NCBI GenBank assembly: GCA_963851265.1
Contig: CAWKNZ010000008.1
Location: 96,001 to 160,000 of the forward strand
DNA: 64,000 nucleotides
Reading direction: 5' to 3'
From: an uncultured Gemmatimonadales bacterium
Lineage (GTDB): Bacteria; Gemmatimonadota; Gemmatimonadetes; Gemmatimonadales; Gemmatimonadaceae
How positions within the stretch are numbered: position 1 is the stretch's first letter; each line of letters begins with the position of its first letter. This document shows, one piece after another, positions 229-62,997 of the stretch. A program made the position numbers and the translations under genes. The notes beneath the pieces were generated by a model, which was not told the origin of the DNA, made no database searches, and saw nothing but the letters and a program-made list of their open reading frames with translations.

Positions 229-930
229 ATGTCCGCGCGTGCACTCTACGACGCCGGCCAGCTCGAGGCGGCGGCGGCCCTGCTCGGCGCCGAGCTCCGG
301 CACCACCCGCTCGACGCCGGGCGCCGCACCTTCCTCTTCGAGCTGCTCGCCTTCGCCGGCGAGTACGACCGCGCCGGCAGGCAGCTCGACGTCCTCGCCT
401 CCGCCGGCGGTCCGGCGGAGGCGGGGACGCTGGTCTACCGCGCCGCGCTCGAGGCCGAGCGCGTGCGTGAGCACATGTTCGCGACCGGCGACTTTCCCGC
501 GGGCGAGGCGCCCGGGCCGGTGGCCGGCACGCTCAACGGCCGGGCGTTCGCCGAGATCGCCGACGCCGACCCGCGGGTCGGCGCCCGGCTCGAGGTGTTC
601 GCGGGCGGGCGCTACCTGTGGCTTCCGTTCGCCCACCTCGCGTCCCTCCGCGTGGACGCGCCCGCGCGCCTGCGCGACCTGCGCTGGGCGCCCGCGCGCC
701 TGGCCACCGGGCCCAGCGTGCGCGACCTCGAGCTCGGCGAGGTGCTGCTCCCCGCGCTCACGCCCGCGGCGTGGCGCCACGCCGACGCCGAAGTGCGGCT
801 GGGGCGCGCGACCGACTGGGACGAGCTCCCGGGCGGCGAATGGGCGCCCGCGGGGCAGAAGCTCCTGCGCGTCGACGGCGAGCTGGTGCCGCTCGTCGAC
901 GTGCGCGAGCTGACGGTCGCGACCGCCTAA
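229..930 (+). CDS. tagJ: T6SS accessory protein TagJ (ImpE/SciE family)
   Basis: RTFLFELLAFAGEYDRA, DADPRVGARLE, YLWLPF and LRDLRWAP motifs. ATG at 229 lies within ORF 31..930. Confidence 0.85.
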   Translation: MSARALYDAGQLEAAAALLGAELRHHPLDAGRRTFLFELLAFAGEYDRAGRQLDVLASAGGPAEAGTLVYRAALEAERVREHMFATGDFPAGEAPGPVAGTLNGRAFAEIADADPRVGARLEVFAGGRYLWLPFAHLASLRVDAPARLRDLRWAPARLATGPSVRDLELGEVLLPALTPAAWRHADAEVRLGRATDWDELPGGEWAPAGQKLLRVDGELVPLVDVRELTVATA

Positions 931-954
931 CGTCCGCCGAACGGCTCCACCCAC

Positions 955-2910
955 GTGGCCGACGCCGAGCTGCTCGCCGCGGTCCTCGCGCCCGTCCCCG
1001 GCCCCGCGCCGGCCGGGCGCGACCTGCGCTACGACCCGCGCTACGACGCCCTGCGCGAGGCGAGGCGCGAGGACGCCGACCTGCCCCAGGGCGGGCTCGC
1101 CGTCGAGCGCAAGCTCGCCGACTGGCCGCGCGTCGCGAAGGACGCCGCGACGCTCCTCGCGACCGCGTCCAAGGACCTCCAGATCGCCGCGTGGCTCACC
1201 GAGGCGCTGCTGCGGCGCGACGGGCTGCGCGGGCTCGAGACGGGCCTTATCGCGTTAGGCGGGCTACTCGACGCGTTCTGGGACGGGCTGTACCCCGAGC
1301 TGGACGACGGCGACGCGGAGCTGCGGCTCGGGCCGCTCGACTGGGTCGGGGCGCGGCTCGACCTCGCCGTGCGGCAGAGCGCGGTGGCGCGCGACGGCCT
1401 CTCGCTGCTCGCCCACGAGGTGTCGCGCAGCGTGCCCACCGAGGAGGCCGCGCGGGACGACAAGGAGAAGGCCACCGCGCGCGAGGCGGCGCTCGCCGAA
1501 GGAAAGCCCTCCCCCGAGGCGGCGGACGCCTCGGTCGCGGCGACGCCCAAGGCGTTCTACAAGGAGCTGGTCGCGGCGGGTGGGGGCGTCACGGCCGCGC
1601 TCGACACACTGGAGCGCGCGGGCGAGGCCCGATTCGGCGGCGACCCGCCGAGCTACCGCGGGCTGCGTCTGGCGCTGGCGGACCTGCAGCGCTTTGCGGC
1701 GGCGACGCTCGCGCGCAAGCTCGAGCAGGACCCCGATCCGGTCGAGCCGCTCGCGCCGGTGGACGTCGGTACCTACGCGCCCCCCTCCGCAGCCGACGCG
1801 AGCGGGACGCTGGCCGCCGAGCCCGCGAGCGCCGCGGACGCGGCGGCGCGCGTGGCGGGGGCGGCCCGCTTCCTCCGCCAGCAGGACCCGACCGCGCCCG
1901 CCTCGTACCTGCTGCTGCGCGGGCTGCGCTGGGGCGAGCTGCGCGGCAACGACGGCGCCGGCGCGAACGGCGCCGGCGCGAACGGCGCCGGCGCCCCCGA
2001 CCCGCGGCTTCTCGAGGCGCCGCCGACGGCGGTGCGGACGCGGCTCAAGGGACTGCTGCTCGACGCGCGGTGGCCCGAGCTGCTGGAGCAGGGCGAACTC
2101 GTGATGGCCACCCCGGCCGGGCGCGGCTGGCTCGACCTGCAACGCTACGCGCTCACCGCCTGCGCCCGGCTCGGCGCGCCGTACGACGCGGTGGCCACGG
2201 CCGTGAGCAGCGAACTCGCCACCCTCCTCACCGCCGTGCCGGGGCTGCCGGCGATGACCCTCATGGACGACACGCCGACGGCCAACGACGAGACGCGACG
2301 CTGGCTGGACGCGCTGCTGGACGGCGGCGCGGCACAGCACGGCGCCGAACACCCGGACGCCGACGGGGGGGAGGACGCCCGCCTCCCGGACGGCAGCGAC
2401 GCACTCCTTATCGCGCTCGACGCGGAGATGGACGGCGACGCGCTCGCCGCCACGGCCCGCGGTGGCGCGGCGCGGCGCTCGACGGGGGGCCACGCCGCCC
2501 ACCACGTCGGCGCGCAGGGCGACGCGCGCGTCGCGGCCGACGCGTTCGCGCTCGCGCGCCTCGAACTCGCCCGCGGGCGCCCCAACCGCGCCGTCGAACT
2601 CCTCGTGGCGGAGCTCGACCGCGAGCGCTCGGCGCGGGGGCGCTTCGTGCGGCAGACGCAGGTCGCGCAGGTGATGGTCGAGGCGGGATTCGAGGCGGTC
2701 GCGCGCCCGATCCTCCAGCGCCTCGTGCAGACGATCGACGAGCGCACACTCGAGGACTGGGAGTCCGGGCCGCTCGTCGCGCAGCCGATGGTGCTCATGT
2801 GCCGCGTGATCGACCGGCTCGAGCTCGACGCGGACGAGCGCGAACAGCTCTACCTGCGGGTGTGCCGGCTCGACCCGCTGCAGGCGCTCGCGCTGCGGCG
2901 CGACGCCTAA
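955..2910 (+). CDS. tssA: T6SS protein TssA (ImpA N-terminal domain)
   Basis: N-terminal P-x-G-x-D-L-R-Y ... DW ... SKDLQIAAWLTEAL ... FWDGLYP (ImpA_N); C-terminal RGWLDLQRY and LEDWE. Confidence 0.9.
   Translation: MADAELLAAVLAPVPGPAPAGRDLRYDPRYDALREARREDADLPQGGLAVERKLADWPRVAKDAATLLATASKDLQIAAWLTEALLRRDGLRGLETGLIALGGLLDAFWDGLYPELDDGDAELRLGPLDWVGARLDLAVRQSAVARDGLSLLAHEVSRSVPTEEAARDDKEKATAREAALAEGKPSPEAADASVAATPKAFYKELVAAGGGVTAALDTLERAGEARFGGDPPSYRGLRLALADLQRFAAATLARKLEQDPDPVEPLAPVDVGTYAPPSAADASGTLAAEPASAADAAARVAGAARFLRQQDPTAPASYLLLRGLRWGELRGNDGAGANGAGANGAGAPDPRLLEAPPTAVRTRLKGLLLDARWPELLEQGELVMATPAGRGWLDLQRYALTACARLGAPYDAVATAVSSELATLLTAVPGLPAMTLMDDTPTANDETRRWLDALLDGGAAQHGAEHPDADGGEDARLPDGSDALLIALDAEMDGDALAATARGGAARRSTGGHAAHHVGAQGDARVAADAFALARLELARGRPNRAVELLVAELDRERSARGRFVRQTQVAQVMVEAGFEAVARPILQRLVQTIDERTLEDWESGPLVAQPMVLMCRVIDRLELDADEREQLYLRVCRLDPLQALALRRDA
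1954..1995 (+). repeat. 15-bp in-frame tandem repeat (GAGAN) inside tssA
   Basis: About 2.8 copies of ggcgccggcgcgaac. Confidence 0.7.
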
Positions 2911-2930
2911 CGCCTGACCTCCCGCGCCCC

Positions 2931-3449
2931 GTGCCCCGCACCGAGCTCGAGCGCGCCGTCCGGCAGTCGCTCCTGGACCGGCTGACCGACGACGAGCCGC
3001 GCACGCCGGCCGACCCGCCGGAGACGCGCGAGGGGTCGGCCGCGCGCTACCGCGCGTCGGTGCTGCGCGACGTCGAGTGGCTGCTGAACACGCGCCGGAC
3101 GCCGGTGCCGGTGGCGCCCGCGCTGGCCGAACTCGGGCGTTCGGTGTTCGCCTACGGGCTGCCCGACACCACCGGCGCCGCGCTCGGGACCCCGCAGGGG
3201 CGCGAGCGGCTGGTCCGCTGGGTGGAGGAGACGGTCACCACGTTCGAGCCACGGCTCTCGGGCGCGCGCGTGACCCTCGCGGCGGCGGACCAGCTCCGGT
3301 CGCCGCAGGTGCACTTCGTCCTGACCGCGACGCTGCGCATGGATCCGAGCCCCGAGCGGGTCGTCTTCGACACGGTGCTGGACCTGGCGAGCGGCGGGTA
3401 CGCGGTGCGCGACGCGGTGACCCGCGACGCAGCGGAGGCGTCGCCGTGA
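2931..3449 (+). CDS. tssE: T6SS baseplate subunit TssE (gp25-like)
   Basis: C-terminal part of ORF 618..3449: SLLDRL ... VLRDVEWLLNTR ... YGLPD ... FEPRL. GTG start at 2931. Confidence 0.9.
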   Translation: MPRTELERAVRQSLLDRLTDDEPRTPADPPETREGSAARYRASVLRDVEWLLNTRRTPVPVAPALAELGRSVFAYGLPDTTGAALGTPQGRERLVRWVEETVTTFEPRLSGARVTLAAADQLRSPQVHFVLTATLRMDPSPERVVFDTVLDLASGGYAVRDAVTRDAAEASP

Positions 3450-5320
3450 GCACGGACGCGGCGGGCGGCGGCGGGGCGCAGGGCGACCTGCTGCTCTACT
3501 ACGAGCGCGAGCTGACCTACCTGCGCCGGCTCGGCGCGGAATTCGGGGCGAAGTACCCCAAGATCGCGGCGCGCCTCCAGCTCGAGCCCGGCAAGTGCGA
3601 CGACCCGCACGTCGAGCGGCTCCTCGAAGGCGTCGCGTTCCTCAACGCGCGGTTGCACCACCGGCTCGACGACGACCTGCCCGAGCTCTCGGGCGCGCTG
3701 CTCGACGCGCTGTACCCGCTCCACGTGCGGCCCGTGCCGTCGCTGTCGGTGGTCGAGTTGGCGCTCGACCCGGAGCTCGGCGCCCTGCCCGGCGGGCACC
3801 GCGTGCCGCGCGGTGCGGAGCTACGCTCGCGCCCCGCGCACGCGGTACCGTGCCGCTTTCGCACGTGCTACGACACCGTACTCTGGCCGGCCGCCGTCGC
3901 CGCGGCCGAGTGGACGGGCCCCGAGCGCGCCGGCCCCGGGGTGCCGCTCGCCGACGCGGTCGGCGCGCTCCGCATCGAGTTGCGCGCCTTCGCGGGGCTG
4001 CGGCTGGCGCAGGTGGAGCTCGACAGCCTGCGACTGCACCTGGCCGGCGACCCGGCGGTGGCCGACACGCTCTACGAGCTGCTGTCGAGCAACGTGGCGC
4101 GCGTCGCGGTGCGCGACCCCGACCAGCCGGCACGCACGCCGACGTTGTTAGGCCCCGACGCGGTGCGCCCCGTGGGGTTCGCCGACGACGAGGCCCTGCT
4201 GCCGCTGCCGCGGCGCACGCTCGCCGCGCACCGGCTCCTGCAGGAGCTGTTCGTACTGCCACAGAAGTTCCACTTCATCGATCTCGCCGGCGTCGGCGCG
4301 GCGTTGCGCGCGCTCGGGTGCGGCCCGCGGGCGGAGCTCGTCGTGCTCGTCACGCCGTTCGAGCGGGCCGAGCGGCGCGCGGCGCTCGAGCTCGGGGTCG
4401 ACGCGGGTGCGGTCCGCCTCGGCTGCACGCCGGTGGTCAACCTGTTCGCCCAGACGGCCGAGCCGATCTTGCTGACCGAGCGGCAGCTCGAGTACCCGGT
4501 GGTCCCCGACGCGCGGCGCCGGCTCGAGATCGAGGCGTGGTCGATCGACGAGGTGGTCTCGCTGACGCCCGGCGAGGGCGACGCGCGGCCCGTGGCGCCG
4601 CTCTACGGCGTACACCGCGGCGGCGCGGCCGACCGGGGGATGGTCTACTGGCACGCCGCGCGGCGGCCGAGCGGGTGGCGTACTGACCGGTCGAGCGAGC
4701 TGTTCCTCTCGTTCGCCGACGCGGGCGGCGCGGCGCGCGCGCCCGACGCGGAGGTGGTCTCGTGCACGCTCACCTGCTGCAACGGCGACCTGCCGAGTCG
4801 GCTGCCGTTCGGGGCGGACGAGCGCGGCGACTTCGAGCTCGCGGCCGGCGGGCCGGTGCGCAGCGTGCGGTGCCTGGTGAAGCCGACCGCCGTGATCGAG
4901 CCACCGTTAGGCACGTCGCTACTCTGGCGCCTCACGTCCGCGCTCACGCTCAACCACCTCTCGCTCGTCGAGGGCGGGCGCGACGCGCTGCGCGAGCTGC
5001 TGCGGCTACACAACGCGGGCGACCGCCCCGCGGGCGAGCGGCAGATCCGGGGGCTGGCGGACGTGCGCAGCGCGCCGGCCTACGCGCGGGTGGCGAGCGA
5101 GTACGGCGTCGCCTTCGCGCGCGGGCGGCGGGTCGAGCTGGAGTTCGACGAGGAGCACTTCCCGGGCGGCGGGGCGTTCCTCTTCGCGAGCGTGCTCGAG
5201 CGCTTCCTCGCGCTCTCGGCGTCGATGAACAGCTTCACGCAGGTTGAGGCGCGGAGCCGGCAGCGGCGGCGTCCGGTAGGCGCGTGGGCGCCGAGGGCGG
5301 GGTGGCGGCCGCTGGTGTAG
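3446..5320 (+). CDS. tssF: T6SS baseplate subunit TssF
   Basis: LLYYERELTYLRRLGAEF...YPKIA...DPHVERLLEGVAFL; LGCTPVVNLF; C-terminal FLFASVLERFL...NSFTQ. GTG start overlaps the tssE stop. Confidence 0.95.
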   Translation: MSTDAAGGGGAQGDLLLYYERELTYLRRLGAEFGAKYPKIAARLQLEPGKCDDPHVERLLEGVAFLNARLHHRLDDDLPELSGALLDALYPLHVRPVPSLSVVELALDPELGALPGGHRVPRGAELRSRPAHAVPCRFRTCYDTVLWPAAVAAAEWTGPERAGPGVPLADAVGALRIELRAFAGLRLAQVELDSLRLHLAGDPAVADTLYELLSSNVARVAVRDPDQPARTPTLLGPDAVRPVGFADDEALLPLPRRTLAAHRLLQELFVLPQKFHFIDLAGVGAALRALGCGPRAELVVLVTPFERAERRAALELGVDAGAVRLGCTPVVNLFAQTAEPILLTERQLEYPVVPDARRRLEIEAWSIDEVVSLTPGEGDARPVAPLYGVHRGGAADRGMVYWHAARRPSGWRTDRSSELFLSFADAGGAARAPDAEVVSCTLTCCNGDLPSRLPFGADERGDFELAAGGPVRSVRCLVKPTAVIEPPLGTSLLWRLTSALTLNHLSLVEGGRDALRELLRLHNAGDRPAGERQIRGLADVRSAPAYARVASEYGVAFARGRRVELEFDEEHFPGGGAFLFASVLERFLALSASMNSFTQVEARSRQRRRPVGAWAPRAGWRPLV

Positions 5321-6399
5321 AGGCGCGCGAGGACGCGCGCGTGGGTGCGTTGGACCCTGCCCCGCCGGCGGCACCGCCGGCCGAGGCGCGCGGCGCGGCG
5401 CCGCCGCACCGCCTCTGGGCGGAGCCGACGGGCTTCGCCGCGTTCCAGGCCGTGCGGCTGTTAGGCCGCATGCAGCCCGGACGGGCCCCGGTGGGCGGCT
5501 GGGCCGACCCGGCGCGCGAGGTGGTGCGCTTCGCCGTGCCGCCCACGCTCGCCTTCCCGAGCGCGGAGGTGCTCGCGCTCGACCCGGGTGCGCCTAACTC
5601 GGACGGCGGCGACGGGCCGCCGCGGCTCGCGGTCGCGTTCTTCGGGCTGGTGGGGCCGCAAGGCGTGCTGCCGCAGGCGTACACGCAGCACGCCGGGGCG
5701 CGGGCCCGCGCACGCGACCCGGCGTTCCGCGACTTCGTCGACCTCTTCCAGCACCGGGCGCTCTCGCTCTTCTACCGCACGTGGACGCAGTCCAAGCCGG
5801 TGTTGGGGCACGAGGCGGGCGCGCGCGACTGGCTCCTCGACCACCTGCTCGACGTCGCGGGGCTGGGCACCGCGGGGTTGCGCGGCCGGCTCGCGGTCCC
5901 CGACGCGGCGCTCGGCTACTACGCGGGGCTCCTCGCGACGGCGGGCCGCCCCGCGGAAGGCCTCGCGCGGCTCGTCGGCGACTACTTCGGCGTGCCGGCC
6001 GCGGTCGAGCAGTTCGTCGGCGAGTGGCGGCCGGTAGGCGGCGACGGGCAGTGCGCGCTCGGCACGGACGACGACGGGGCTCGGCTCGGGCTCGGGGTGT
6101 TGGGCGACGAGGCATGGGACCCCGAGGCGCGCGTTCGGCTGCGACTCGGGCCGCTGTCGCGCGCCGATTTCGACGGGTTCCTGCCCGGCGGGGCGGCGCA
6201 CGCGGCCCTGCGGGACCTTGCGGGCGTGTACGCGGACGCGCAGGTAGGCGTCGACGCGCAGCTGGTTCTCGACCGTGCGGCGGTGGCGCCGGTGGTGCTG
6301 GGCGACGACGCGGAGCCGCCTACGTTAGGCCGCGGAATGTGGCTGGTCAGCCGGCCGCTGAGGCGGGACCCGGATGAGACGACGTTCGCGCTGTGTTAG
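5284..6399 (+). CDS. tssG: T6SS baseplate subunit TssG
   Basis: FQAVRLL, LAFP, FFGLVGPQGVLP, FRDFVDLFQHR, EQFVGEW, FLPGG motifs; overlaps the end of tssF. Confidence 0.92.
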   Translation: MGAEGGVAAAGVEAREDARVGALDPAPPAAPPAEARGAAPPHRLWAEPTGFAAFQAVRLLGRMQPGRAPVGGWADPAREVVRFAVPPTLAFPSAEVLALDPGAPNSDGGDGPPRLAVAFFGLVGPQGVLPQAYTQHAGARARARDPAFRDFVDLFQHRALSLFYRTWTQSKPVLGHEAGARDWLLDHLLDVAGLGTAGLRGRLAVPDAALGYYAGLLATAGRPAEGLARLVGDYFGVPAAVEQFVGEWRPVGGDGQCALGTDDDGARLGLGVLGDEAWDPEARVRLRLGPLSRADFDGFLPGGAAHAALRDLAGVYADAQVGVDAQLVLDRAAVAPVVLGDDAEPPTLGRGMWLVSRPLRRDPDETTFALC

Positions 6400-7032: not shown

Positions 7033-8046
7033 CTACGGGCTGCTCACGGATTGGAGTGGGGCCACCCACTCGCCCCGCCCTACCTCTCCCTCTTCGACGA
7101 CCGCCAGGAACGCCCGCCGCAGCGGCCGCCCATGCGCCGCCCGCTCCGCGTACGCCTCGCGCAGCTCCGTTAGGCCGTCGCACTCGTAACGGTTGCACGT
7201 GTCCGACCGCAGCGCGCGCGGCAGCGCGCACCCTCCCGGGGTGTGGTACACGCACGACCCGTCCAGCGACGCCGCGGGCAGGTGCGCCGCGTACGCCGCC
7301 GCGGCCGCGCGCACCCCCGCCCCCGGGTGCTCGGCGAACCACCGCCGCAGTGTGTCCGCCGTGAGGTAGGCCCGCTCGCCGCCCATGCGGCAGCAGCGGC
7401 CGCCGCACGCCGCGCAGGCCGCGCCGACGAACGGCGCCTCGCCGGCGGCTGGGGGCGCCGGAGGCGCGCCCGGCGGGGATGCGCCCGGCGGGGGTGCGGA
7501 GGCGCGGGTGTCGAACGCGAGGCGCGCGACCCGGCGCACGTGCGCGCGGAACGCGCGCCCCCGACGCCGCGGCAGGCGCACCGGCGGCGGCGGGCGCGGC
7601 GGGATGAACATCGGAAAGCCGCACGGGTCGGCCGACGGCAGCAGCACCACCGGCGCCTCCGCACGCGCGTCGGGCCCGACGCGCGCGTCCGCGTCGCGGA
7701 GCGCCCGCGCCGCCGCGCCGAGCCGCACGGATGCCTCCGCGGCGATCGCGGCGCGCTGGCGGGCGTGCTCGCGCCCGAGTGTGGCGGCGCGGCACTCCGG
7801 CGTGCCGCAACGCCCCGCGGCGCGCGCCGATGGCGTGTCGACCGCCCGGCCGCACTCGGCGCACGTGACGAGGGCCGGGGCCGTCATGGCGCGGCGTCGG
7901 CACGCCGAGCGGCCGCAGACCGCCACCGCGCACCGCTCCCCCCGCAGGCTGGCGGGCATGGAGAGCGGCGGGGCGCCCGGGGGCACCGGCGCGGCGCAGA
8001 CCGCGCAGGGGGCGCTGCGGGGCGGCGCGTGCGGGGCAGCAAACAT
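7033..8046 (-). CDS. Cys-rich protein with a YkgJ-like CxxCxxCC Fe-S/zinc domain
   Basis: CAACGGRCC ... CVYHTPGGC ... RSDTCNRYEC, plus N-terminal CxxC pairs. GAGGAG RBS before ATG at 8046. Confidence 0.55.
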   Translation of the reverse strand: MFAAPHAPPRSAPCAVCAAPVPPGAPPLSMPASLRGERCAVAVCGRSACRRRAMTAPALVTCAECGRAVDTPSARAAGRCGTPECRAATLGREHARQRAAIAAEASVRLGAAARALRDADARVGPDARAEAPVVLLPSADPCGFPMFIPPRPPPPVRLPRRRGRAFRAHVRRVARLAFDTRASAPPPGASPPGAPPAPPAAGEAPFVGAACAACGGRCCRMGGERAYLTADTLRRWFAEHPGAGVRAAAAAYAAHLPAASLDGSCVYHTPGGCALPRALRSDTCNRYECDGLTELREAYAERAAHGRPLRRAFLAVVEEGEVGRGEWVAPLQSVSSP

Positions 8047-8577: not shown

Positions 8578-11364
8578 ATGCCGGTCACCCTCCGCGCCCT
8601 CATCGGCAAGCTCAACGCCCCGACCCGCTCGACCATCGAAGCGGCGGCCGGACTCTGCCTCTCGCGCACGCACTACGACGTCGAGGTCGAGCACTTTCTG
8701 CTCAAGGCGCTCGACGCCACCGACGGCGACCTCGCGCAGATCCTGCGGCACTACGGGGTGAACCGCGCGCGGCTCGCCGACGACCTCGCGCGCGGGCTGG
8801 ACCGGCTCAAGAGCGGGAACGCACGCACGCCGGCCCTCGGCCCGCACCTCGTCCAGATGCTCGTCGAAGCCTGGACGATCGGCTCGATCGAGTTCGGGGC
8901 GCCGCAGGCGCGCATCGGGCACTGCGTGCTCGCCCTCGTCTCGCACGACGAGCTGCGCCGCATGGCCGGCGAGATCAGCCGCGAGCTGGAGAAGATCCCC
9001 GCCGACGCGCTGCGCAAGGACTTCGTCGCGGTCACCGCGCCGTCGGCCGAGGCGGCCGCGGAGCTGCGCGGCTCGGACGGCGCAGCGTTAGGCACGGGCG
9101 CGGCGGCGGACGGCGCCCCCCGCCCGCCCGCGGCCGGTGGCCGCACGCCCAACCTCGACCAGTACACCGTCGACCTCACCGCCCGCGCCCGCGCCGGCAA
9201 GCTCGACCCGGTGTTGGGCCGCGACGCGGAGGTGCGGCAGGTGGTCGACATCCTCACCCGCCGCCGCCAGAACAACCCGATCCTCGTCGGCGAGGCGGGC
9301 GTGGGCAAGACGGCCGTCGTCGAGGGCTTCGCGTGCCGCATCGCGGAGGGGGACGTGCCCGAGCCGCTCCGGCACGTCACCCTCCGCACGCTCGACCTCG
9401 CCCTGCTGCAGGCCGGCGCGGGGGTCAAGGGCGAGTTCGAGAACCGCCTCAAGGGACTCATCGAGGAGGTCAAGAACTCGCCGACGCCGGTCATCCTCTT
9501 CGTCGACGAGGCGCACACGATGATCGGCGCCGGCGGGCAGGCGGGGCAGAACGACGCCGCCAACCTGCTCAAGCCGGCCCTCGCCCGCGGCGAGCTGCGG
9601 ACGATCGCCGCGACCACGTGGGCGGAGTACAAGAAGTACTTCGAGAAGGACCCCGCGCTCTCACGCCGCTTCCAGCTGGTCAAGGTCGAGGAGCCGGGGG
9701 AGGAGCAGTGCCTCGTGATGCTGCGCGGCGTGGTCCCGGCGCTCGAGGCGCACCACCGGGTCCGCATCACCGACGACGGGCTCGACGCGGCCGTGCGCCT
9801 CTCGCACCGCTTCCTGCCCGACCGCCAGCTCCCCGACAAGGCGGTGAGCGTGCTCGACACCGCGTGCGCGCGGCTCGCGTTAGGCCAGCAGGCGACGCCG
9901 GCCTCGGTCGAGGCCGCGCGGCGCGAGCTCGACGACCTCGCCGTGCAGGCCCGTGTGCTCGGCCGCGAGGCCGCGCTCGGCGCCGACCACGGCGAGCGCC
10001 TCGGGGCGATCGCGGCGCGGCGCGCGGAGCTGGACGCGCACCTCGCCGCGCTGACCGAACGCTGGAACGCGGAGAGCGCCCTCGTCGGCAAGGTGCGCGC
10101 GCTGCGCGCCCGGATCGAGGACGGGGCGGACGACCTCCCCGCCTTACGGGCAGAGCTCGCGGCGCGGCAGACGGCGCTCGAGGCGCTCCAGGGCGAGACC
10201 CCGCTCGTGCGCGTCGCGGTCGACGCGTCGATCGTCGGCGAGGTGATCTCGGGGTGGACCGGCGTCCCCGTCGGCAAGATGCTCCGCGACCAGCTCGGCC
10301 TCATGCTGCAGCTCGAGCGCCGCCTCGGCGAGCGCATCATCGGGCAGGACCACGCGTTGGGCGCGGTCAGTCGCCGCGTGCGCACCTCGGCGGCCAAGAT
10401 CGAGGACCCCAACAAGCCCAAGGGCGTCTTCATGCTCGTCGGCCCCTCGGGCGTCGGCAAGACCGAGACGGCGCTCGCGCTGAGCGACCTGCTCTACGGC
10501 GGCGAGCAGAACCTCGTCACCGTCAACATGAGCGAGTTCCAGGAGGCGCACACCGTCTCCACGCTCAAGGGCTCGCCGCCCGGCTACGTGGGCTACGGCG
10601 AGGGCGGCGTGCTCACCGAGGCCGTCCGGCGCCGCCCGTACTCGGTGGTGCTCCTCGACGAGGTCGAGAAGGCGCACCCCGACGTGCTCGAGCTGTTCTT
10701 CCAGGTGTTCGACAAGGGCGTGCTGGAGGACGGCGAGGGGCGGCAGGTCGACTTCCGCAACACGCTCATCCTGCTCACGACCAACGCGGGCACGGACACG
10801 ATCATGAAGCTGACGGCGGACCCCGAGACCGCGCCCGCGCCCGACGCGCTCGCCGCCGCGCTCAAGCCCGAACTCGACCGCGCGTTCAAGCCGGCCTTCC
10901 TCGGCCGCATGGTCGTGGTGCCCTACCTCCCGGTGCGCGACGAGCACCTCCGGCGCATCGTCCGCCTCAAGCTCGGGCGGATCGCGCGCCGGCTGCGCGA
11001 GACGCACGCCGTCACGCTCGCCTACGACGACGCGCTCGTCGACGCCGTGGCCGCGCGCTGCACCGAGGTGGAGAGCGGCGCGCGCAACGTCGACCACATC
11101 CTGACCAACACCATGCTCCCCGAGCTGTCGCGCCTGCTGCTCGAGGCGGCCGGCGCGGGCACGCGGCCGGGTGCGTTGCGCGTCGGCGTGGACACGACCG
11201 GCGAGCTGACCTACGCGGCGGGCGACGGCGCACCGTCCGCCGGGGCGACGCCAGACGGGGCGACGAACGACCCCGCGTCCGAAGCGGCCGACGTCCGCGC
11301 GGCGGTGCGCGACCCCGGGTACTCGGTCGCGCCGCCCGAGGCCGCGCCGCTGGCGGCCCGGTGA
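8578..11364 (+). CDS. tssH: T6SS ATPase ClpV (TssH)
   Basis: Two AAA+ modules (GEAGVGKT, GPSGVGKT), RRRQNNPIL, LKGSPPGYVGYGEGGVLTEAVRR, and a ClpV-type N-terminus. Confidence 0.97.
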   Translation: MPVTLRALIGKLNAPTRSTIEAAAGLCLSRTHYDVEVEHFLLKALDATDGDLAQILRHYGVNRARLADDLARGLDRLKSGNARTPALGPHLVQMLVEAWTIGSIEFGAPQARIGHCVLALVSHDELRRMAGEISRELEKIPADALRKDFVAVTAPSAEAAAELRGSDGAALGTGAAADGAPRPPAAGGRTPNLDQYTVDLTARARAGKLDPVLGRDAEVRQVVDILTRRRQNNPILVGEAGVGKTAVVEGFACRIAEGDVPEPLRHVTLRTLDLALLQAGAGVKGEFENRLKGLIEEVKNSPTPVILFVDEAHTMIGAGGQAGQNDAANLLKPALARGELRTIAATTWAEYKKYFEKDPALSRRFQLVKVEEPGEEQCLVMLRGVVPALEAHHRVRITDDGLDAAVRLSHRFLPDRQLPDKAVSVLDTACARLALGQQATPASVEAARRELDDLAVQARVLGREAALGADHGERLGAIAARRAELDAHLAALTERWNAESALVGKVRALRARIEDGADDLPALRAELAARQTALEALQGETPLVRVAVDASIVGEVISGWTGVPVGKMLRDQLGLMLQLERRLGERIIGQDHALGAVSRRVRTSAAKIEDPNKPKGVFMLVGPSGVGKTETALALSDLLYGGEQNLVTVNMSEFQEAHTVSTLKGSPPGYVGYGEGGVLTEAVRRRPYSVVLLDEVEKAHPDVLELFFQVFDKGVLEDGEGRQVDFRNTLILLTTNAGTDTIMKLTADPETAPAPDALAAALKPELDRAFKPAFLGRMVVVPYLPVRDEHLRRIVRLKLGRIARRLRETHAVTLAYDDALVDAVAARCTEVESGARNVDHILTNTMLPELSRLLLEAAGAGTRPGALRVGVDTTGELTYAAGDGAPSAGATPDGATNDPASEAADVRAAVRDPGYSVAPPEAAPLAAR

Positions 11365-11398
11365 ACGGTCGGCGCCCGACCCGCCGGGTGCGGACCCG

Positions 11399-33880: not shown

Positions 33881-34058
33881 GCATCGAGCGCGACTTGGGA
33901 GCGGAACAGGAGACCGGCCCGTTGGGGGCACGCCTAACAGATCCGCGTGACGCGGGCGCGGCGGCCCCGGCGGGCCGCGGGGCGCCGGCCCTGGCACTCT
34001 CGGCGCGATGCTCTACCCTTCCTGAAGTACGGCCACCTCCCCCGTTTTCCCCCGCCGC

Positions 34059-36785
<2,727 letters not shown>

Positions 36786-37221: not shown

Positions 37222-37335
37222 GGTCGAACCTCTCGGGGACGAGGGGTGGTGGACGCGGCGGCGGTCGCCGCCGCGGGGAACACGGAGCCCGGTGCGGCTC
37301 CCGTGGTAGGCACGGACGGTCAGGTCGTTAGGCGG

Positions 37336-39811: not shown

Positions 39812-39859
39812 GGGGACGGGCCTCGGGTGGGCGGCTTGGGTGGTCGAAGCGGTCGGGCG

Positions 39860-43075: not shown

Positions 43076-43077
43076 GG

Positions 43078-48559: not shown

Positions 48560-48593
48560 GGCGGGCTCCTGCGGCGCGGGCGGTGAGGACGCG

Positions 48594-48794
48594 TTAGGCC
48601 TGGTGGTGGTGGCCGGCGCGGAGCGCCTCGGTCCAGGTGCGGGCGAGGCCGCCGACGACGGCTTCGAGGTCGTCTTCCGAGAGCTCGTCGTCGGCGGATG
48701 CCGCGCGCGGGGTTGCCGGCGCGTGGGCGATCGGGGTGAAGGCGATCGGAGGGAGGGCGGCGGCGGGGCGCGCGGGGGTGGGCAGCAAAGACAT
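48594..48794 (-). CDS. Short double-glycine precursor-like peptide (core LARTWTEALRAGHHHQA)
   Basis: ELSEDDLEAVVGG motif; first gene behind a sigma54 promoter. Confidence 0.65.
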   Translation of the reverse strand: MSLLPTPARPAAALPPIAFTPIAHAPATPRAASADDELSEDDLEAVVGGLARTWTEALRAGHHHQA

Positions 48795-49001: not shown

Positions 49002-49095
49002 GGGCGGCGGCGGACGTCGTGAGCGCCCGAGCAGCCGCGCGGTTGCCTAACGATCCGGACCCGTCTGAGGCGGCGTCGGGCGGCGCGAACGCACC

Positions 49096-49402: not shown

Positions 49403-49531
49403 GGCAAGCGCGGGACCGGCCGGCGGGGTCGGCGCAAGTCGCACACGTGCAACACGTTAGGCTCGCGCGCGCGGCCGCGCCGCAGGCCCGGCCTGGCGCC
49501 CTGCCGCGACCGGCTAGAGCTGTGGCTCCAC
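49403..49531 (-). promoter_or_regulatory. sigma54 promoter + IHF-like site + UAS
   Basis: cGGTCCCGCGCTTGCc (49418-49403); CAACACGTTA near 49450; CTAGAGCtgtgGCTCCAC at 49514-49531. Confidence 0.75.
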
Positions 49532-50140
49532 AGGCGGCGGCCCTCTACCGGGGGGCGCCTCGTGCGGCACGTCGCCGGTATCGAGGAGGAGCTCGACGCG
49601 CGAACGGTTCGCAGCAGCGCCGGTGCGCCGAACGGCGCGGTACGCGCGGTCGAAGCCGCGCGCGACCGCCGCACCCGGTTCGGGGACGACCTGCCCGAAA
49701 GATTCCGTTAGACGCTCGCGGCTACCCGCGATCCCGCCGTCGACCGACCCGCGCTCAGTCGCGTCGGCATACGCGCTCGGGAACAGACTTGTGCTGAGCA
49801 GCGTCGCGTCGTAGATCGCGCGGCGCGCTCACGCCCGCTGCGCCGTCGGGGTGAGCGCCGCCTCGAGGTCGAGGAGCAGCGGGTGCTCGCCGGACGGGAC
49901 GACGCTCTCGGATTGCGCTCTCCATCGCCGCCGTCGAGCGTCGACCGTCGAACATCCGAGAGACCGCGCGGAACGCCGAGAGCCTCCGGGCGGCAGCCGG
50001 GGTGGGAACGCTGCCCACTGGCGCGACACGCCGGCGGCCGACCACGGTCGGCCGCCGGTCGTCCAGCACCCGCGATGCCTAACACACGCGAGGGCGTCCG
50101 GCTGCTATCCGCCGGACGCCGCCCAACGTGCCACGCATCA

Positions 50141-50487: not shown

Positions 50488-50505
50488 GCGGTAGTACCGG
50501 GTCGC

Positions 50506-55285: not shown

Positions 55286-55322
55286 CAGCGTGAGGGGCAG
55301 GGTAGGTGGGGACCCCAGCGTG

Positions 55323-58300
55323 TTAGGCCCACAGGAGCACATTCGGGACGACGTCCGGCGCCGCCAGCCGCAGCAACTGGTAGCCGATCCCGGCGCTCCC
55401 CTGTGCAAGTCCTACCGCGATCGCCCCCCATCCGGTGTTGTACGCGCCGTCGACGCTGGCGCGCGCCATCACGTGGTCGGCGGCACCGCGGGCCTCGGCG
55501 ACGAGTTCGGGGCGGCGGAGGTGCCGCCCCGCACTCAGCAGAAGCTCGGTACGCCCCATGACGCCGCAGCACAGCGTGTCCGGGCCGGCGAGGAGCCGGT
55601 CCCGCGTGCGGCGCACGGCGGCATGCACCTCGGGTGAGACGTCCGGCCACGCGTCGGCTGCATCGGTCGCGGGACGGGTCACGGCCAGCCGGGCCAGACC
55701 GATGCCGCCCGCGCCGCGAGCCCACGCGGCCCGCGCGTCGTCGTCCCCCGAGAGCCCGCAGAGTTCTGGGCCCAGCACGGTGCGCTCGTACGCGAAGGCG
55801 TCCGCCGACGCCGACGCGAAGCGGGCCTCGCCGGTCGCTGTGGCCAGGCGGTGCAGCGCGTACGCGATCCCCGCATGCCCGTGCGCCATGCCAGTCTCGG
55901 GCTGGCCGCGCGGGCCGGGCCAGTACCCCGCCGCCGTCGCGCCGGCGCCTTCCCGCCGCCGCAGCAGGTGGTCGCCCAGCGCCACGGCGCGCTCCAGCGC
56001 CGCGCCGCCCGGCGCGTCGGCGAGCGCGAGCAGGCCGAGGATCGCGCCAGCCGACCCGGCCATCAGGTCACCACTGTCCCGTTCCTCGACGCACGCGACG
56101 TCGATCAGCGCGGCAACATCGGCGGCGGCGTGCATTGTCGCGGTGTCGTTAACGAGGGTACCCAGGCGGGCGAGGGCGTACGCCGTGGAGCCGAGGCCGG
56201 TGCCGGCGCCTACGTCCGTCCAGCGCCGCACGCGCACGGAGCGTCGCAGGTCGGGGAGGTGGGCGTGGAGCGGACGCAGTGACGCGAGCGCCTGGTCCGC
56301 GAACCGCCCGTCGCCTGTGACCCTGGCCAGCACCGCCAGGAAGAGGGCGAAGCCCACGTATCCGTCGAGCAGGTTCGCTGGCGCCGCGCCGAGCACGTAG
56401 CGTCGCGACGCCGCGTGGTACATGGGCGCGACCCACGCCCCCACCGCACACCGCCGCGCGCGCGACCGGGCGATCACGCGCTCCGCGATGGCGACGCCTG
56501 CGGCGAGCGCGCGGTCCGTGAAACCGTCGCCGGCCGCGGCGGCCGTGTCCGAGGGAATCGGCACCCCGGCGACCTTCGCGCGGCGGGCCCGCCGCTCCGC
56601 CGGCGGAGCGGCGGGCCCGCGCACGTCGTCCACGTCGACGGCCGCGAACGAGGCGCGGATGAGCTCGACCTGCGCCTCCTCGTCCTCGGGGCTGAGCGCG
56701 CGCATGCGCCGTACGGCCATGTCGAATGCCGAGGTCCGGAAGCACCCCTCGATCACGTCTCCGGTCGGAAGCACCAAGGCGGTGCTGTCCGCGTCGGCCG
56801 TGAACAGGGGAATGTCGAGCCGCTCGAGTGCTTCTTGCTCGGCGCGCAGGACGGGCCAGATCGTCGGCCGATCGGCGCGCGTCAGGAACGTGCGGCACAG
56901 CACGTCCAGCTCCACGCCGCGGCGCACGCCGTCGCGCAACAGGTTGGGGTGGTTGCAGCGCTCGAGCAGCGCCGCGTACAGGCTGGTGTTGCGCAGGATG
57001 AAGCGGACGCGCTGCCGCCGCATGCACGCGATCGGGCCACCCGGCGCCAACACCTCGTCGCGGCCGGCGAGGAGGGCGGCGTAGGTCCGCCGGAACCCCA
57101 CGACGAGCGCCTCCACGTGCTCACGCGCGGTAACCGCGCGGCCGTTCACCATCGGGAGGTTCGCGGGGTGCCGTTGGGCCGGCGCGCGCACTCGAACGGG
57201 CCGCATGGCCGCCGTATTCGCGGCAACCCACGTGCTGACCACCGAGTCGTCGGTGGGCTGCGCGCCCGCGCGAAACGCGCCCACCTCAACCGCCCCCCCC
57301 GAGTCGTCGACCTTGAGTTGTGGCAGCATGTGCAAGGCGAGCACGGAATCGAACAGGAAACGGCGGGCGGTTCCGTCGGCCATCGCCTGGTCGGGCGGCT
57401 CGTCGGTCGGCGCGAAGTCAGGGCTGAGCAGCGTCTCCAGATCGATGAGCACCGGCTGGTCGCCGGCAGCGATCAAGTTTTCGAAGTGGAAGTCCGATCC
57501 GTTGAGCGCGTACGCGATGCACAACAGCGCCCCGCACCGCTCGTAGAACCGGGCGACGTCGCCCTCGCGCGCGCACGGGGCGTGGGCGGCGAACTCCAGC
57601 CACCCGTGTGTCGGGCGCGCCACCACGCGCAACGGCGCCAGCGACAGCGCGGGCGCGCGGGCGTTGAGCCACCGCGCGAGGTCGCCGAAGCACTCCTCCA
57701 GCCCGACCGGGCGCGGCTTGTAGACCACCCGGTGGCCGCCGGCAAAGTGTAGGATCATCACGCCGCGGCCGCCCTCGTGCGGATCGGAGAGCGAGCACGA
57801 GAGGTCGACGACGGGGCCGAGCGGCTTCCCACCCGCCAGCACGTCGCGGATGCGCTCCGCGTCGTCGGCGAGGCGCGCGATCAGCTCCGCTGCGGCTTCA
57901 ACCCACAGGTCGACGATCGTCGCACACAGCCGAGCGGCCACGGGATACTCGACGAAGAACGCCCGCATGCCGCCGGCGCGCATGCCCGCGACGAAATCCG
58001 CGTACGCGTCGCCCGCCGTCGGCCCCATGCCCAGTGCCGCGTGCCGGCAGACCCGGTCGACCGAGAACGACACGAACAGCGCGCGCGCGCACGTCTGGCT
58101 GAGCCGCTGGAGGGCGGCTCCTTCCAGCGCGGCGTGCGCCTGCGGGGTCAGGAGGTCGTGCGCCGGCCCGACTCGCGCCCGTACGCGCTCGCGAGCGACC
58201 CGCATGAGCGGCGCGAATACGTCGCCGAACGCCACGGCAGCCGCGCCGCCGGCGGACGGCACCTCGACCGCTTCGGCGGCGGGCGCCGCTTGTAGCCGCG

Positions 58301-58610
58301 GCCCGTACGCGGCTGTGAGTGTGGCCGACCACCCGAGGTCGGCCGGCGTCGGGTCGGTGTCCCCCAGCATCCGCGCGACCACCGCGGGATCGAGCCCGTC
58401 CCACGTGAGGCGCCGATGAAGGCTGGGCCAGTCACCGCGGCTGAGGGTGGCGCACCACCCCTGCAGCTCGGGCGGTTGGACGCCCGCGTCGTGGCCCGCG
58501 TCGTGGCCCGCGCTACGCCGCCGCACACCATCGAGCCGAGACTGAAGTGTGGCGGCGCGCGTGAGCGAGAGCAGGACGGCGCCGTCGCGGGCGGTGTGAG
58601 CAAGCGTCAT
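55323..58610 (-). CDS. lanM: Class II lanthipeptide synthetase LanM (copy 2, cyclase motif WC changed to WA)
   Basis: SDPHEGG, VVYKPR, DFHFENL, IDLETL, DIPLF; cyclase GMAHG, WARG, LCCG. Confidence 0.92.
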   Translation of the reverse strand: MTLAHTARDGAVLLSLTRAATLQSRLDGVRRRSAGHDAGHDAGVQPPELQGWCATLSRGDWPSLHRRLTWDGLDPAVVARMLGDTDPTPADLGWSATLTAAYGPRLQAAPAAEAVEVPSAGGAAAVAFGDVFAPLMRVARERVRARVGPAHDLLTPQAHAALEGAALQRLSQTCARALFVSFSVDRVCRHAALGMGPTAGDAYADFVAGMRAGGMRAFFVEYPVAARLCATIVDLWVEAAAELIARLADDAERIRDVLAGGKPLGPVVDLSCSLSDPHEGGRGVMILHFAGGHRVVYKPRPVGLEECFGDLARWLNARAPALSLAPLRVVARPTHGWLEFAAHAPCAREGDVARFYERCGALLCIAYALNGSDFHFENLIAAGDQPVLIDLETLLSPDFAPTDEPPDQAMADGTARRFLFDSVLALHMLPQLKVDDSGGAVEVGAFRAGAQPTDDSVVSTWVAANTAAMRPVRVRAPAQRHPANLPMVNGRAVTAREHVEALVVGFRRTYAALLAGRDEVLAPGGPIACMRRQRVRFILRNTSLYAALLERCNHPNLLRDGVRRGVELDVLCRTFLTRADRPTIWPVLRAEQEALERLDIPLFTADADSTALVLPTGDVIEGCFRTSAFDMAVRRMRALSPEDEEAQVELIRASFAAVDVDDVRGPAAPPAERRARRAKVAGVPIPSDTAAAAGDGFTDRALAAGVAIAERVIARSRARRCAVGAWVAPMYHAASRRYVLGAAPANLLDGYVGFALFLAVLARVTGDGRFADQALASLRPLHAHLPDLRRSVRVRRWTDVGAGTGLGSTAYALARLGTLVNDTATMHAAADVAALIDVACVEERDSGDLMAGSAGAILGLLALADAPGGAALERAVALGDHLLRRREGAGATAAGYWPGPRGQPETGMAHGHAGIAYALHRLATATGEARFASASADAFAYERTVLGPELCGLSGDDDARAAWARGAGGIGLARLAVTRPATDAADAWPDVSPEVHAAVRRTRDRLLAGPDTLCCGVMGRTELLLSAGRHLRRPELVAEARGAADHVMARASVDGAYNTGWGAIAVGLAQGSAGIGYQLLRLAAPDVVPNVLLWA

Positions 58611-59533: not shown

Positions 59534-59633
59534 GAGAGTGGGTGGCGGTGGGTCAGGGTGGTGGGACGCGCGGGCTGGCGTCGGCGGACGTTAGGCGTTC
59601 GGGGGCGCCCCGCGGCGGGGGCACCGGCCGCCG

Positions 59634-60665: not shown

Positions 60666-60710
60666 GTGTACGAGCGCTTCCGGCGCTGGTCGCGGGCGGG
60701 CGTGTGCCGG
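60666..60710 (+). pseudogene. Possible short IS5-family transposase scar
   Basis: VYERFRRWSRAGVC resembles the IS5-family TVYxRFRRWxxxGVW motif. Confidence 0.3.
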
Positions 60711-61093: not shown

Positions 61094-62392
61094 TCACCGC
61101 TCGGTCGACGGCGCGCCCACCCGCGCACTGGCCGCGCCCGGTTTGAGGTCGTGGTGCCGCAGAAAGTCCATAAACTTCAAATAGTCCCCTTCCGCGATCG
61201 CAAACAGCCCGAGCACCCGCTTGTAACTCCCCCGCGTCGCCACGAGCCCCCGCTCCACCACCAGCCGCACCTCGGCGCGACTCAGCTCGCGCTCCATGTA
61301 CGGCCCGTGCACCAGCTCCCAGAACGTCCCCTCCCCCGCCAGCATCCGCGCGTACGGGTCCGCCCCCGCGGCACCGACGGCCCGCGTGCCGCCCGGCGGC
61401 GTCATCACCGGCACCCCCCGCAGCTCCTCGCTGCACGCCGCCCCCTCCAGCGCCTCGCCGAAGTCCCGGGCCTCGATGGTCGCCCCCTCGCACACGTAGT
61501 AACCCGTGTCGACGAGGCTCCGGAGCTCGCGCACGTTCCCGGGCCACGCGTACCGGCCTAACACCACGAGCGCGTGCGCCGAGAACCGCTTGCGCGACCC
61601 CTCCGCCTTCACCACCCGCTCCAGGTAGTGCTCCAGCACCAGCCGCCAGTCGTCGCCGCGCTCCCGGAGCGACGGCACGCGCACGTGCAGGTGCCGCAGC
61701 CGGTAGTAGAGGTCCGCGCGGAACCTCCCGCTCTCGACCATCGGCCGCAGGTCGCGGCTCGTCGCGGCGACCACCCGCACGTTGATCCGCTTGCTCTGCG
61801 TCGTCCCCACCGACAGGATCTCGCCCTCGCCCAACACGCGCAGCAGCATCGCCTGCGCCGTGACCGAGAGCTCGCCGACCTCGTCGAGGAACACCACCCC
61901 ACCGTCGGCCTCCTCGAACACGCCGCGGTGGTCACCGACGGCGCCCGTGAACGAGCCCTTGCGGTGCCCGAACAGCTCGCTCGCCAGCAGCTGGCCGTCG
62001 TGGTACTGCGCGCAGTTCACGGCGAGGAACGGCTTGCGGCTGCGGCGACTCAGCAGGTAGACCGCCCGGGCGAACAGCTCCTTGCCCGTGCCCGTCTCGC
62101 CCGTCACCAGCACCGGCCCGTCCGCCTCCGCGAAGCGCGCCGCGCGCTCCAGCGCCTGCGTGAGCGTCTCGTGCGACCCCACCACCGACACCTCGCGCGC
62201 CTCACCCCACCGTTCGCGCGACAGCTCGGCGATGCGCCGGCTGACGAACGACGCGGCGGGGGCGTCGGCCGCGCCGCGATCCGCCAACGTGTGCCCCAGT
62301 GCTCCACCGGCCGCCGGACTGTACGCGGCTCCTCCGGCCGTCCCGCCGAGCCCGCGCCGCGTGACGACCGACTGCTCCACCGCACTCATCAT
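61094..62392 (-). CDS. sigma54-dependent enhancer-binding protein with no N-terminal receiver or sensor domain
   Basis: GETGTGKE, SELFGHRKGSFTGA, FLDEVGEL, RFRADLYYRL, WPGNVREL. Confidence 0.93.
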   Translation of the reverse strand: MMSAVEQSVVTRRGLGGTAGGAAYSPAAGGALGHTLADRGAADAPAASFVSRRIAELSRERWGEAREVSVVGSHETLTQALERAARFAEADGPVLVTGETGTGKELFARAVYLLSRRSRKPFLAVNCAQYHDGQLLASELFGHRKGSFTGAVGDHRGVFEEADGGVVFLDEVGELSVTAQAMLLRVLGEGEILSVGTTQSKRINVRVVAATSRDLRPMVESGRFRADLYYRLRHLHVRVPSLRERGDDWRLVLEHYLERVVKAEGSRKRFSAHALVVLGRYAWPGNVRELRSLVDTGYYVCEGATIEARDFGEALEGAACSEELRGVPVMTPPGGTRAVGAAGADPYARMLAGEGTFWELVHGPYMERELSRAEVRLVVERGLVATRGSYKRVLGLFAIAEGDYLKFMDFLRHHDLKPGAASARVGAPSTER

Positions 62393-62523
62393 GTGTCGCT
62401 CCGGATGCCCGCCCGTACGCCAGTGGTGCCGGCGAGCGGGGCCGCGCCGGCGCGTGAGCGGCGGGAGGCCCGCCCTCACGCCCCGACGGTATGGTCGGAC
62501 GCGCGGCCCGCGGACCTCTCCGG

Positions 62524-62653
62524 GACGAGCGGAGCGAACCGCGTGACGGACGGGGTCTGGCGCGTGACCAACGGGCGCGCGGCCCGCGGCGGGCGGTGTG
62601 CCGCCGCCCGAGCCCGGCTGCCGTCCGCTCGTCCGGCCCGGCCTCCGCTCGTC
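62524..62653. promoter_or_regulatory. LytTR/AlgR-like direct-repeat boxes in a divergent intergenic region
   Basis: Minus strand: CCGCTCGTC, CCGTCCGTC, CCGTTGGTC at 62524/62545/62566 (21-bp period). Plus strand: CCGCTCGTC at 62625 and 62645. Confidence 0.6.
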
Positions 62654-62829
62654 ACGCCGCGGGGCGGGTTGGCACATGTGGGACGCGACACCGGCGCCGG
62701 GCGCACCTATCGTCTCGCCCGCCGGACGTCAGGCTACCGGCGCCGGAGCGGTCCCACGTCGCACGGCACCCCCCGAGACTCGCCCCCGCTCGACCCCCCT
62801 CCGACGACCGCCCCGGCGGCAGGTGTCAC

Positions 62830-62916
62830 ATGGAAACGATCCTCCACTGGCTCGGCATCCTGCACGGCGTCATCTCGCCCACACCGGTCCACGCCGACCC
62901 GCCGCCCTCCGCCTAA
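62830..62916 (+). CDS. Putative 28-aa peptide METILHWLGILHGVISPTPVHADPPPSA
   Basis: AGGTG RBS-like sequence, ATG 62830, TAA; coding-like codons. Confidence 0.45.
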   Translation: METILHWLGILHGVISPTPVHADPPPSA

Positions 62917-62997
62917 CCGACGACCCCGGCCGGCGTCCGCGCCGGCCCGCCCGCCGGCCCGAACGACGGCTACGTCGTGGCCGTCACCTCGTCGTCG

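Follow-up and report, generated by a model that had tools for sequence, protein, structure and literature searches.

What is a single seven-letter word doing 41 times in one stretch of bacterial DNA? The stretch, here called the window, is the 64,000 nucleotides from position 96,001 to 160,000 of contig CAWKNZ010000008.1 of an uncultured Gemmatimonadales bacterium, and the word is GTTAGGC, or GCCTAAC when read on the other strand. An earlier note on the window, made from the letters alone, had counted at least 41 copies by eye and proposed a genome-wide iterated signal: an uptake sequence, a modification-linked motif like HIP1, or a nucleoid-protein site. The count was right. There are exactly 41 copies, 23 GTTAGGC and 18 GCCTAAC, and all 16 coordinates quoted are exact, against a mean of 2.14 and a maximum of 6 in 100 dinucleotide shuffles of the window. 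As described below, the word is a genome-wide signal acting at the level of DNA, and we see about an even chance that (C)GTTAGGC is a recombination tag that works like DNA uptake sequences (DUS) or HIP1 and was spread by biased conversion.

A genome-wide word written against codon use

The genome under study (G000; 4.60 Mb, about 73% G+C, 12 contigs) holds 1,762 copies. All contigs carry them, at 3.3 to 5.5 per 10 kb, so the enrichment is not confined to the window. The two strands are nearly equal (885 and 877), in keeping with the note's remark that this non-palindromic word shows little strand bias. By our own gene caller (3,709 genes), 1,285 copies lie within genes, 190 across gene ends and 287 outside. 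Compared with a codon-aware null, the frame G-TTA-GGC is found 991 times versus 33.7 expected (observed/expected, O/E, 29), G-CCT-AAC 200 versus 15.3 (O/E 13), GC-CTA-AC 71 versus 8.4 (O/E 8) and GTT-AGG-C 23 versus 0.8 (O/E 30), ratios nowhere near 1. Indeed, 991 of the 1,275 TTA codons in the genome (78%) belong to the word. Stop codons follow the same pattern: TAA ends 123 of the 256 genes with the context GCC-stop-C and 309 of 3,363 others, and TAG is the stop in 83 of the 90 genes with the context xGT-stop-GC. Intergenic copies number 283 versus 26.7 expected, about 10-fold. Because all usable frames, stop codons and spacers are enriched, the signal acts at the DNA level and not via protein or tRNA.

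The core of the word is sharp. One-off words are scarce (ATTAGGC 14, CTTAGGC 10, GTTAAGC 15, GTTAGGT 27), and graded flanks surround this strict core. The position before it is C in 79% and T in 14% of copies, giving the extended form (C>T)GTTAGGC, with the same preference in both reading directions. Other short words depart from expectation in this genome: CTAG is strongly avoided (1,108 versus 6,043 expected), AGCGCT, GAGCTC and CTCGAG are under-represented, and AGGCGCT is over-represented.

Conserved genes use the word most. Among compatible sites, 24 to 30% carry it in proteins that share 80% identity or more with those of two congeners (G001 and G004), and 8 to 15% below that identity; by G+C content at third codon positions (GC3), density is 0.13 versus 0.49 per kb, atypical genes being poor. 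The congeners share 38 to 48% of word sites, another genus 12 of 30 and a word-poor genome 0 of 32. The tripeptide [ATPS]LG is raised against word-poor orthologs (102 versus 79, and 64 versus 47), as encoded tripeptides are for uptake sequences (PMC2817400; papers cited here by number were accessible in part, and statements drawn from them apply to those parts).

Spacing without polarity

The terminus was placed by a dif-like site at 1.369 Mb of contig C2 (C2:1,368,975), near xerC/D, and by a flip in KOPS orientation at 1.368 Mb. The word ignores it. On contigs C2, C5 and C7, leading and lagging genes carry 2.46 and 2.62 copies per 10 kb, intergenic copies number 75 and 64, and word orientation follows gene direction, not fork direction, which bears out the note's distinction from Chi and KOPS. 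A KOPS-type motif, GGGNAGGG, is present separately; it is polar and flips at the dif-like site. A link to XerD was considered and dropped, as the word is missing from the dif arm.

Copies avoid one another at short range. With copies reshuffled over compatible amino-acid sites inside 30-kb blocks as the null, coding pairs closer than 300 bp number 19 versus 86 expected in the same orientation and 11 versus 38 in opposite orientation, a 3.5- to 4.5-fold depletion; beyond 300 bp the counts are near the null. The densest genome found, G012, is likewise depleted of pairs under 100 bp (9 versus 35). Neighbor pairs within 20 bp number 8 versus 13 expected, of which 3 are inverted. Rare inverted pairs at C2:11,211 and C2:116,118 form perfect short intergenic hairpins.

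A halo of high G+C around each copy

Beside each copy silent A/T is roughly halved, and on either side it takes several hundred bases to return. GC3, corrected for amino acid and position, is offset by +1.72 points at 9 to 30 bp from the word, +0.77 at 100 to 150 bp and -0.64 at 600 to 900 bp, both sides alike, and genome-wide the silent A/T fraction is 3.7% within 100 bp of a copy and 9.6% beyond 8 kb. Unused [ATPS]-Leu-Gly sites are flat, other TTA/CTA codons are slightly negative, and the one-mismatch word GGTAGGC has a small positive halo. In genes with no inner copy, a copy at the stop codon produces the same kernel. The halo is reproduced in both congeners (0.5 Mb each). An earlier, smaller ortholog test was mixed; in later ortholog contrasts the halo was deeper in the copy-owning genome in 4 of 4 cases, with a residue in the other genome.

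The effect falls mainly on transitions. In three congeners, codon pairs that differ only by a transition have odds ratios of 0.57 to 0.65 near the word, versus 0.92 (0.72-1.17) for the transversion-only pairs AGG/CGG and ATA/ATC; four-fold families show the transition bias less clearly. Comparison of congeners showed no general antimutator effect for C-G changes, and this idea was rejected, as was a Phe-to-Leu ratchet at word-ready sites, which is not general (3/46 versus 90/1,322). Quicker loss of A/T alleles near the word is a hint, confounded by gene class. The word-free sister G035 has an overall GC3 of 0.965, about the near-word level of the genus of G000, and a 10.5-bp helical periodicity is absent from the word flanks. 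Taken together, the halo suggests that in this genus the word marks spots of DNA recombination or repair.

Word-free zones at ParB-like loci

The largest word gap spans 45 kb on contig C1 (expected number 0.0003) and holds gidA-parA-parB with three copies of a parS variant, TGTGGCACGTGCCACA, at C1:186,276, 192,709 and 195,715. G001 and G004 have the same variant; G012, G019 and G031 have canonical parS instead. The other three ParB-like genes of G000 (C8:256-260.5 kb, C6:80-85 kb and C9:122.8-127 kb) have gaps of 21, 15 and 14.6 kb around them. Within 5 kb either side of the four genes, three surroundings are empty and the fourth has one copy, where a random 10-kb stretch is word-free 4% of the time. 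Four repeats of a 14-bp near-palindrome mark the C9 locus. The three further loci are probably secondary replicons; the C8 locus comprises parA, a parB-like gene and a gene for a DnaA_N-domain protein, and the window therefore probably lies on a secondary replicon.

In the chromosomal zone, 0 of 65 compatible sites carry the word, and in the congeners 2 of 50 and 1 of 58; the congener orthologs of the C1 zone hold 2 and 1 copies over 34 kb, and congener copies nearby are mostly in genes of GC3 0.92-0.99 that are unmatched to genes of the G000 zone. Only one of three secondary ParB-like loci in the congeners has a gap, G012 and G031, from two other genera, have none at parB, which rules out a universal exclusion of the word from origins, and a 22-kb gap in G000 covers core translation genes without ParB.

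Patchy distribution among relatives

The note had suggested comparison with related genomes. We examined G000 and 59 relatives, measuring enrichment against the control GTTAGHC (word-rich, at least 7-fold; word-poor, below 3-fold; G011 is excluded here and included in tallies out of 61). Nineteen of the 60 are word-rich, 4 intermediate and 37 word-poor. When 160 genomes were drawn evenly from the phylum and assessed by eye, with the reversed word for comparison, clear cases made up 5 of 33 in the family and 2 to 3 of 78 in a second family, with none clear among the 46 genomes outside the order. Among 80 named loci, 10 were word-rich, 30 without the word and 40 short or intermediate. In a tree built from 59 methylase rows, the word state changes 7 times, versus 15.6 in shuffles, and well-supported sister clades differ in state; the word was gained or lost several times among these relatives. 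G012, at 62% G+C, has 7,758 copies in the dialect CGTTAGGY.

No gene family profiled tracks the word

A reader of the word was not found among the gene families profiled across word-rich and word-poor genomes. Only one intact DNA-methylase-like gene emerged from a motif scan of G000: a gamma-class adenine methylase of 1,141 amino acids, followed by an intact-looking SNF2 helicase, on the minus strand at C7:579,717-585,511 (L143:7717-13511). The methylase has Type IIG/DrmMI-like hits and the helicase is DrmD-like; both are single copy in nearly all Gemmatimonadales searched. The methylase model (pLDDT 77) has a fold resembling BseCI, CamA, PglX and MmeI, a class that acts on asymmetric targets on one strand, and a PDB sequence search with the methylase gave no matches. 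This pair is only a candidate reader. The methylase is found in 60 of 61 genomes and the helicase in 57 of 61, word-poor ones included (adjacent in 19 of 23 loci), and since the pair is nearly universal its presence cannot explain the patchiness. None of the target-recognition columns of the methylase separates word-rich from word-poor genomes, and neither do the neighbors of the pair (best p 0.004, uncorrected). At residue 271 of the methylase, 13 of the 19 word-rich genomes have Leu, as do 6 of the 41 word-poor ones; the site is one base off the word, G012 spells the word there, and this Leu is probably a mark left by the word, not an indication of function. Alongside lie an ECF sigma factor, DUF4097 proteins and a glycosyltransferase, with no other defence genes; membership in DISARM class I or BREX was rejected, the other genes of those systems not being alongside. 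The pair looks like a domesticated orphan methylase module.

Other methylase families gave little. C5 and N4/N6-beta families had no match in G000 or G001 (PF00145, the C5 methylases, 0 of 5 genomes; PF01555 absent in G000 and G001). Two apparently broken HsdM-like type I methylase genes were matched in pieces at C7:771.4-772.5 kb and C9:0.9-1.9 kb. The literature searched, including the accessible part of the supplement of PMC4752239, contained no methylome for the phylum or the word. Among the sequencing runs listed, one of DNA had a small share of the genome and none of RNA had any; the pieces listed for that run did not bear on the word.

Competence and repair genes fare no better. G000 has comEC, a comEA-like gene, dprA and pilin-type genes; ComEC (59/61), pilin leaders, and ComEA-like and DprA proteins (5/5) do not separate genomes by word state. 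Among repair profiles, MutS (everywhere), UDG (61/61), Vsr (2/5) and Ku (3/5) do not track the word; NucS and MutH (PF02976) are absent from all five genomes profiled, and Vsr, MutH and NucS are all missing from G000.

Identity with the integron cassette end

The note had pointed out that the word matches the integron core GTTRRRY. The match is closer than that: in two arrays of G000, attC hairpins end in CGTTAGGC in 8 of 8 cases, the preference for C at position -1 included, as do 6 of 7 in the word-poor G037, and this exact identity over eight letters is unlikely to be chance. The dispersed copies are not attC relics, however. The eight array sites have R'' and R' boxes 50 to 150 bp apart and a bottom-strand hairpin, whereas the dispersed copies are single, lack a partner box or hairpin (115 upstream versus 76 downstream, control 91 versus 68) and lie in frame in core genes. 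Integrase and cassette arrays of G000 are at C6:1-6,044 (L058) and C10:188-205 kb (L057); the integrase is split by a serine-recombinase element, and the arrays carry BrnT, DUF433/DUF5615 and DUF4926/DUF6883 gene pairs. Integron integrase matches occur in 46 of 61 genomes and do not track the word, with 14 in the 19 word-rich genomes and 28 in the 37 word-poor ones, and the profile of the integrase N-terminal domain fails to separate the two groups.

The 41 copies in the window

Copies in the window were placed by exact match and classed against our own gene calls. As the note had said, those in genes force rare codons and others supply stops. Fifteen encode Leu(TTA)-Gly. Eight of these are on the plus strand in plus-strand genes: 1254-1260 in gene 955-2910, 4147-4153 and 4906-4912 in 3446-5320, 5460-5466 and 6324-6330 in 5284-6399, 9087-9093 and 9879-9885 in 8578-11364, and 12124-12130 in 11399-13360. 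Seven are on the minus strand in minus-strand genes: 24511-24517 in 22219-25581, 26881-26887 in 25648-26943, 40805-40811 and 42395-42401 in 39860-43081, 46173-46179 and 46548-46554 in 45405-46667, and 61556-61562 in 61094-62392.

Eight encode Pro(CCT)-Asn: minus-strand copies at 5592-5598 in the plus-strand gene 5284-6399 and 20839-20845 in 20075-22222 (plus), and plus-strand copies in minus-strand genes at 29085-29091 (26946-30173), 38756-38762 (38570-39811), 45277-45283 (43078-45408), 52399-52405 (50506-53361), and 47543-47549 and 47555-47561, a rare close pair, in 46664-48559. Two encode Leu(CTA)-Thr, at 7169-7175 (plus) in 7033-7887 (minus) and 36688-36694 (minus) in 34059-36785 (plus).

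Seven copies supply stop codons. A single one at 22218-22224 (plus) is both the TAG stop of 20075-22222 (plus) and the TAA stop of the convergent gene 22219-25581 (minus). TAA stops are supplied on the minus strand at 925-931 and 2905-2911 to plus-strand genes 229-930 and 955-2910, and on the plus strand at 39859-39865, 48593-48599 and 55322-55328 to minus-strand genes 39860-43081, 48594-48788 (a short call) and 55323-58526; 50504-50510 (minus) is the TAG stop of 50506-53361 (minus). The remaining nine are intergenic or without a gene call: on the plus strand 32895-32901, 37327-37333 (directly beyond the end of 37336-38568, minus), 49456-49462 and 59590-59596, and on the minus strand 33446-33452, 33932-33938, 49045-49051, 50077-50083 and 62911-62917.

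Discussion

The word works like DUS and HIP1 yet fails defining tests of each. Like DUS and uptake signal sequences, it is non-palindromic and non-polar, with hundreds to thousands of genic copies (PMC2397512, PMC2817400), shapes tripeptides, is richer in conserved genes, is evenly spaced and has dialects. Unlike them, it has 7 to 8 letters rather than 9 to 12, no terminator pairs and no ComP match, it is patchy within families and genera, and it has gaps at ParB zones and a G+C halo, an effect we did not find described for DUS in the literature open to us. Like the cyanobacterial HIP1, GCGATCGC, it is hyper-abundant against codon use, with positions partly conserved (PMC4390886); HIP1 has been linked by proposal to methylation, mismatch repair and transformation (PMC4390886, PMC5861425, bioRxiv 10.1101/2024.09.10.611283). 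Unlike HIP1, our word is not palindromic, and none of the methylases found tracks it. With Chi and KOPS it shares a short asymmetric repeated form and a tie to DNA transactions, though not replichore skew, and its effect is two-sided. Mismatch repair directed by Dam and MutH is no closer, since the word is asymmetric and MutH is absent from the five genomes. In the same literature, as far as its text was accessible, GTTAGGC appeared only in a bladder-cancer study and GCCTAAC only in integron work.

Of the three options in the earlier note, an uptake or recombination tag fits best, although a receptor was not found. In the recombination-tag reading, a protein would read (C)GTTAGGC and make the surrounding DNA likelier to be recombined into the chromosome. 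Word-bearing alleles would win conversions, a form of drive; short tracts around the word would be converted with G:C bias at transition mismatches, leaving the halo; and one copy per tract, in either orientation, would suffice, giving the spacing. Less securely, because the ParB-coated centromere zones lack the word in the genus of G000, reading may take place in the cell or on free recipient duplex. We favor this reading because known parts would account for the abundance of the word in spite of codon use, for its spacing and its bias to conserved genes, and for the halo. DUS spacing follows conversion length (PMC2397512), and methylated HIP1 raises transformation more than 100-fold (bioRxiv 10.1101/2024.09.10.611283).

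Several observations count against a recombination tag. Word-poor kin have the competence genes just as often. Close inverted pairs are not in excess among neighbor pairs in G000. In G012, the densest genome, the halo is weak (odds ratios about 0.87), and the samples from G031, G008 and G019 are too small for it to show. The profile ComP_DUS (PF16732) has no match in G000, shows no pattern across 37 genomes and matched 0 of 14 controls as well; the lack of ComP does not exclude uptake, because Pasteurellaceae use another receptor. A surface receptor fails to explain the word-free ParB zones. Near copies, congeners show no rise in C-G divergence, whereas DUS flanks are more divergent (PMC2397512). 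Neisseria conversions run to 0.6-1.7 kb (PMC2397512), longer than the hundreds of base pairs of the halo, and a strong correlation of G+C with recombination was found in only 1 of 10 species (PMC4866539).

A second explanation, which is possible but to our minds doubtful, is a beacon for repair or protection within the cell. A bound protein or methyl mark would make C-to-T change rarer within about 300 bp, whether it steered T:G and U:G repair to C:G or shielded cytosines, and copies would be selected through a lower gene mutation load. Its candidate reader would be the adenine methylase and SNF2 translocase at C7:579.7-585.5 kb of G000, whose fold class has asymmetric targets. A beacon explains the transition bias and the ParB gaps better than a recombination tag does: all four ParB-like loci lie in gaps, and spreading of ParB or SopB blocks access by Dam. 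ParB spreading interacts with DNA-bound roadblocks (PMC7053999). Spacing that saturates independently of orientation and the greater use of the word in conserved proteins agree with it, and a rough load calculation suggests selection of the needed order. Either drive or beacon would need only modest strength, as a log O/E of 3 to 4.5 translates into a few units of scaled advantage. On the other side, the methylase and helicase occur in word-poor genomes and no enzyme tracks the word; Vsr, MutH and NucS are missing from G000 while MutS and UDG are everywhere; there is no parB gap in G012 or G031, nor at two of three secondary ParB-like loci in the congeners; and the word-free G035 has a higher GC3 than the genus of G000. 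We know of no precedent for such a beacon. As for the HIP1-like option of the note, the word is non-palindromic and C5 and N4 methylases have no match in G000 or G001, which speaks against it, yet a gamma-class adenine methylase is present order-wide.

A bolder form, the "GC keeper", is one we regard as speculative and rather improbable. Here the defence-derived, order-wide adenine methylase and SNF2 translocase would mark the word and steer transition mismatches within about 300 bp to G:C. If so, a selectable eight-letter word, missing under ParB clamps and identical to the integron cassette end, would write the local base composition and mutation rate of a bacterium.

The note's third option, a nucleoid protein that nucleates at the word and from there covers a few hundred bases of G+C-rich DNA, with flanks selected for G+C and the protein, as a roadblock, excluded from ParB zones, seems unlikely to us. 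It would account for graded flanks around a strict core, for the spacing and for the ParB gaps, and HIP1 has been argued to be architectural (PMC5861425). It explains the transition-biased halo poorly, since selection for G+C should affect transversion pairs too and hardly does, and the lack of helical periodicity, the copies retained by inserted genes beside parB in congeners, and patchy gain and loss between sister clades all speak against it.

A special case of the recombination tag, which we hold to be very unlikely, has it tuned to the cassette end: a receptor preferring CGTTAGGC would take up cassettes, and drive would write the word chromosome-wide. This would explain how separate lineages reached the same word in about seven independent changes, it agrees with the attC ends of G000 and G037, and transformation supplies cassettes to chromosomal integrons (PMC12614218). 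However, integrase is about as frequent in word-poor as in word-rich genomes, that of G000 is interrupted, and a conserved ancestral reader would explain the recurrence equally well.

Finally, cassette scars or integrase products, a polar signal like Chi or KOPS, TTA control of the bldA type and assembly errors are highly improbable and largely refuted already: the word is the attC end and holds most TTA codons, but the copies have no partner box, are in frame in core genes and are shared with orthologs, there is no polarity and the halo is two-sided, other frames and spacers are enriched too, and fragmented and near-complete assemblies alike contain the word.

Uptake sequences are known from only two bacterial families (PMC7811141), and HIP1 has resisted explanation; another hyper-abundant word is now at hand in a common soil phylum. 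Because it was gained or lost several times, genomes with and without it can serve as natural controls in pairs. Through the halo, local G+C is linked to a single short word over a distance that can be measured, and the cause of high bacterial G+C, whether biased conversion, repair or selection, thus becomes testable within one genome. Identity with the cassette end may link cassette capture to the host's handling of its own DNA.

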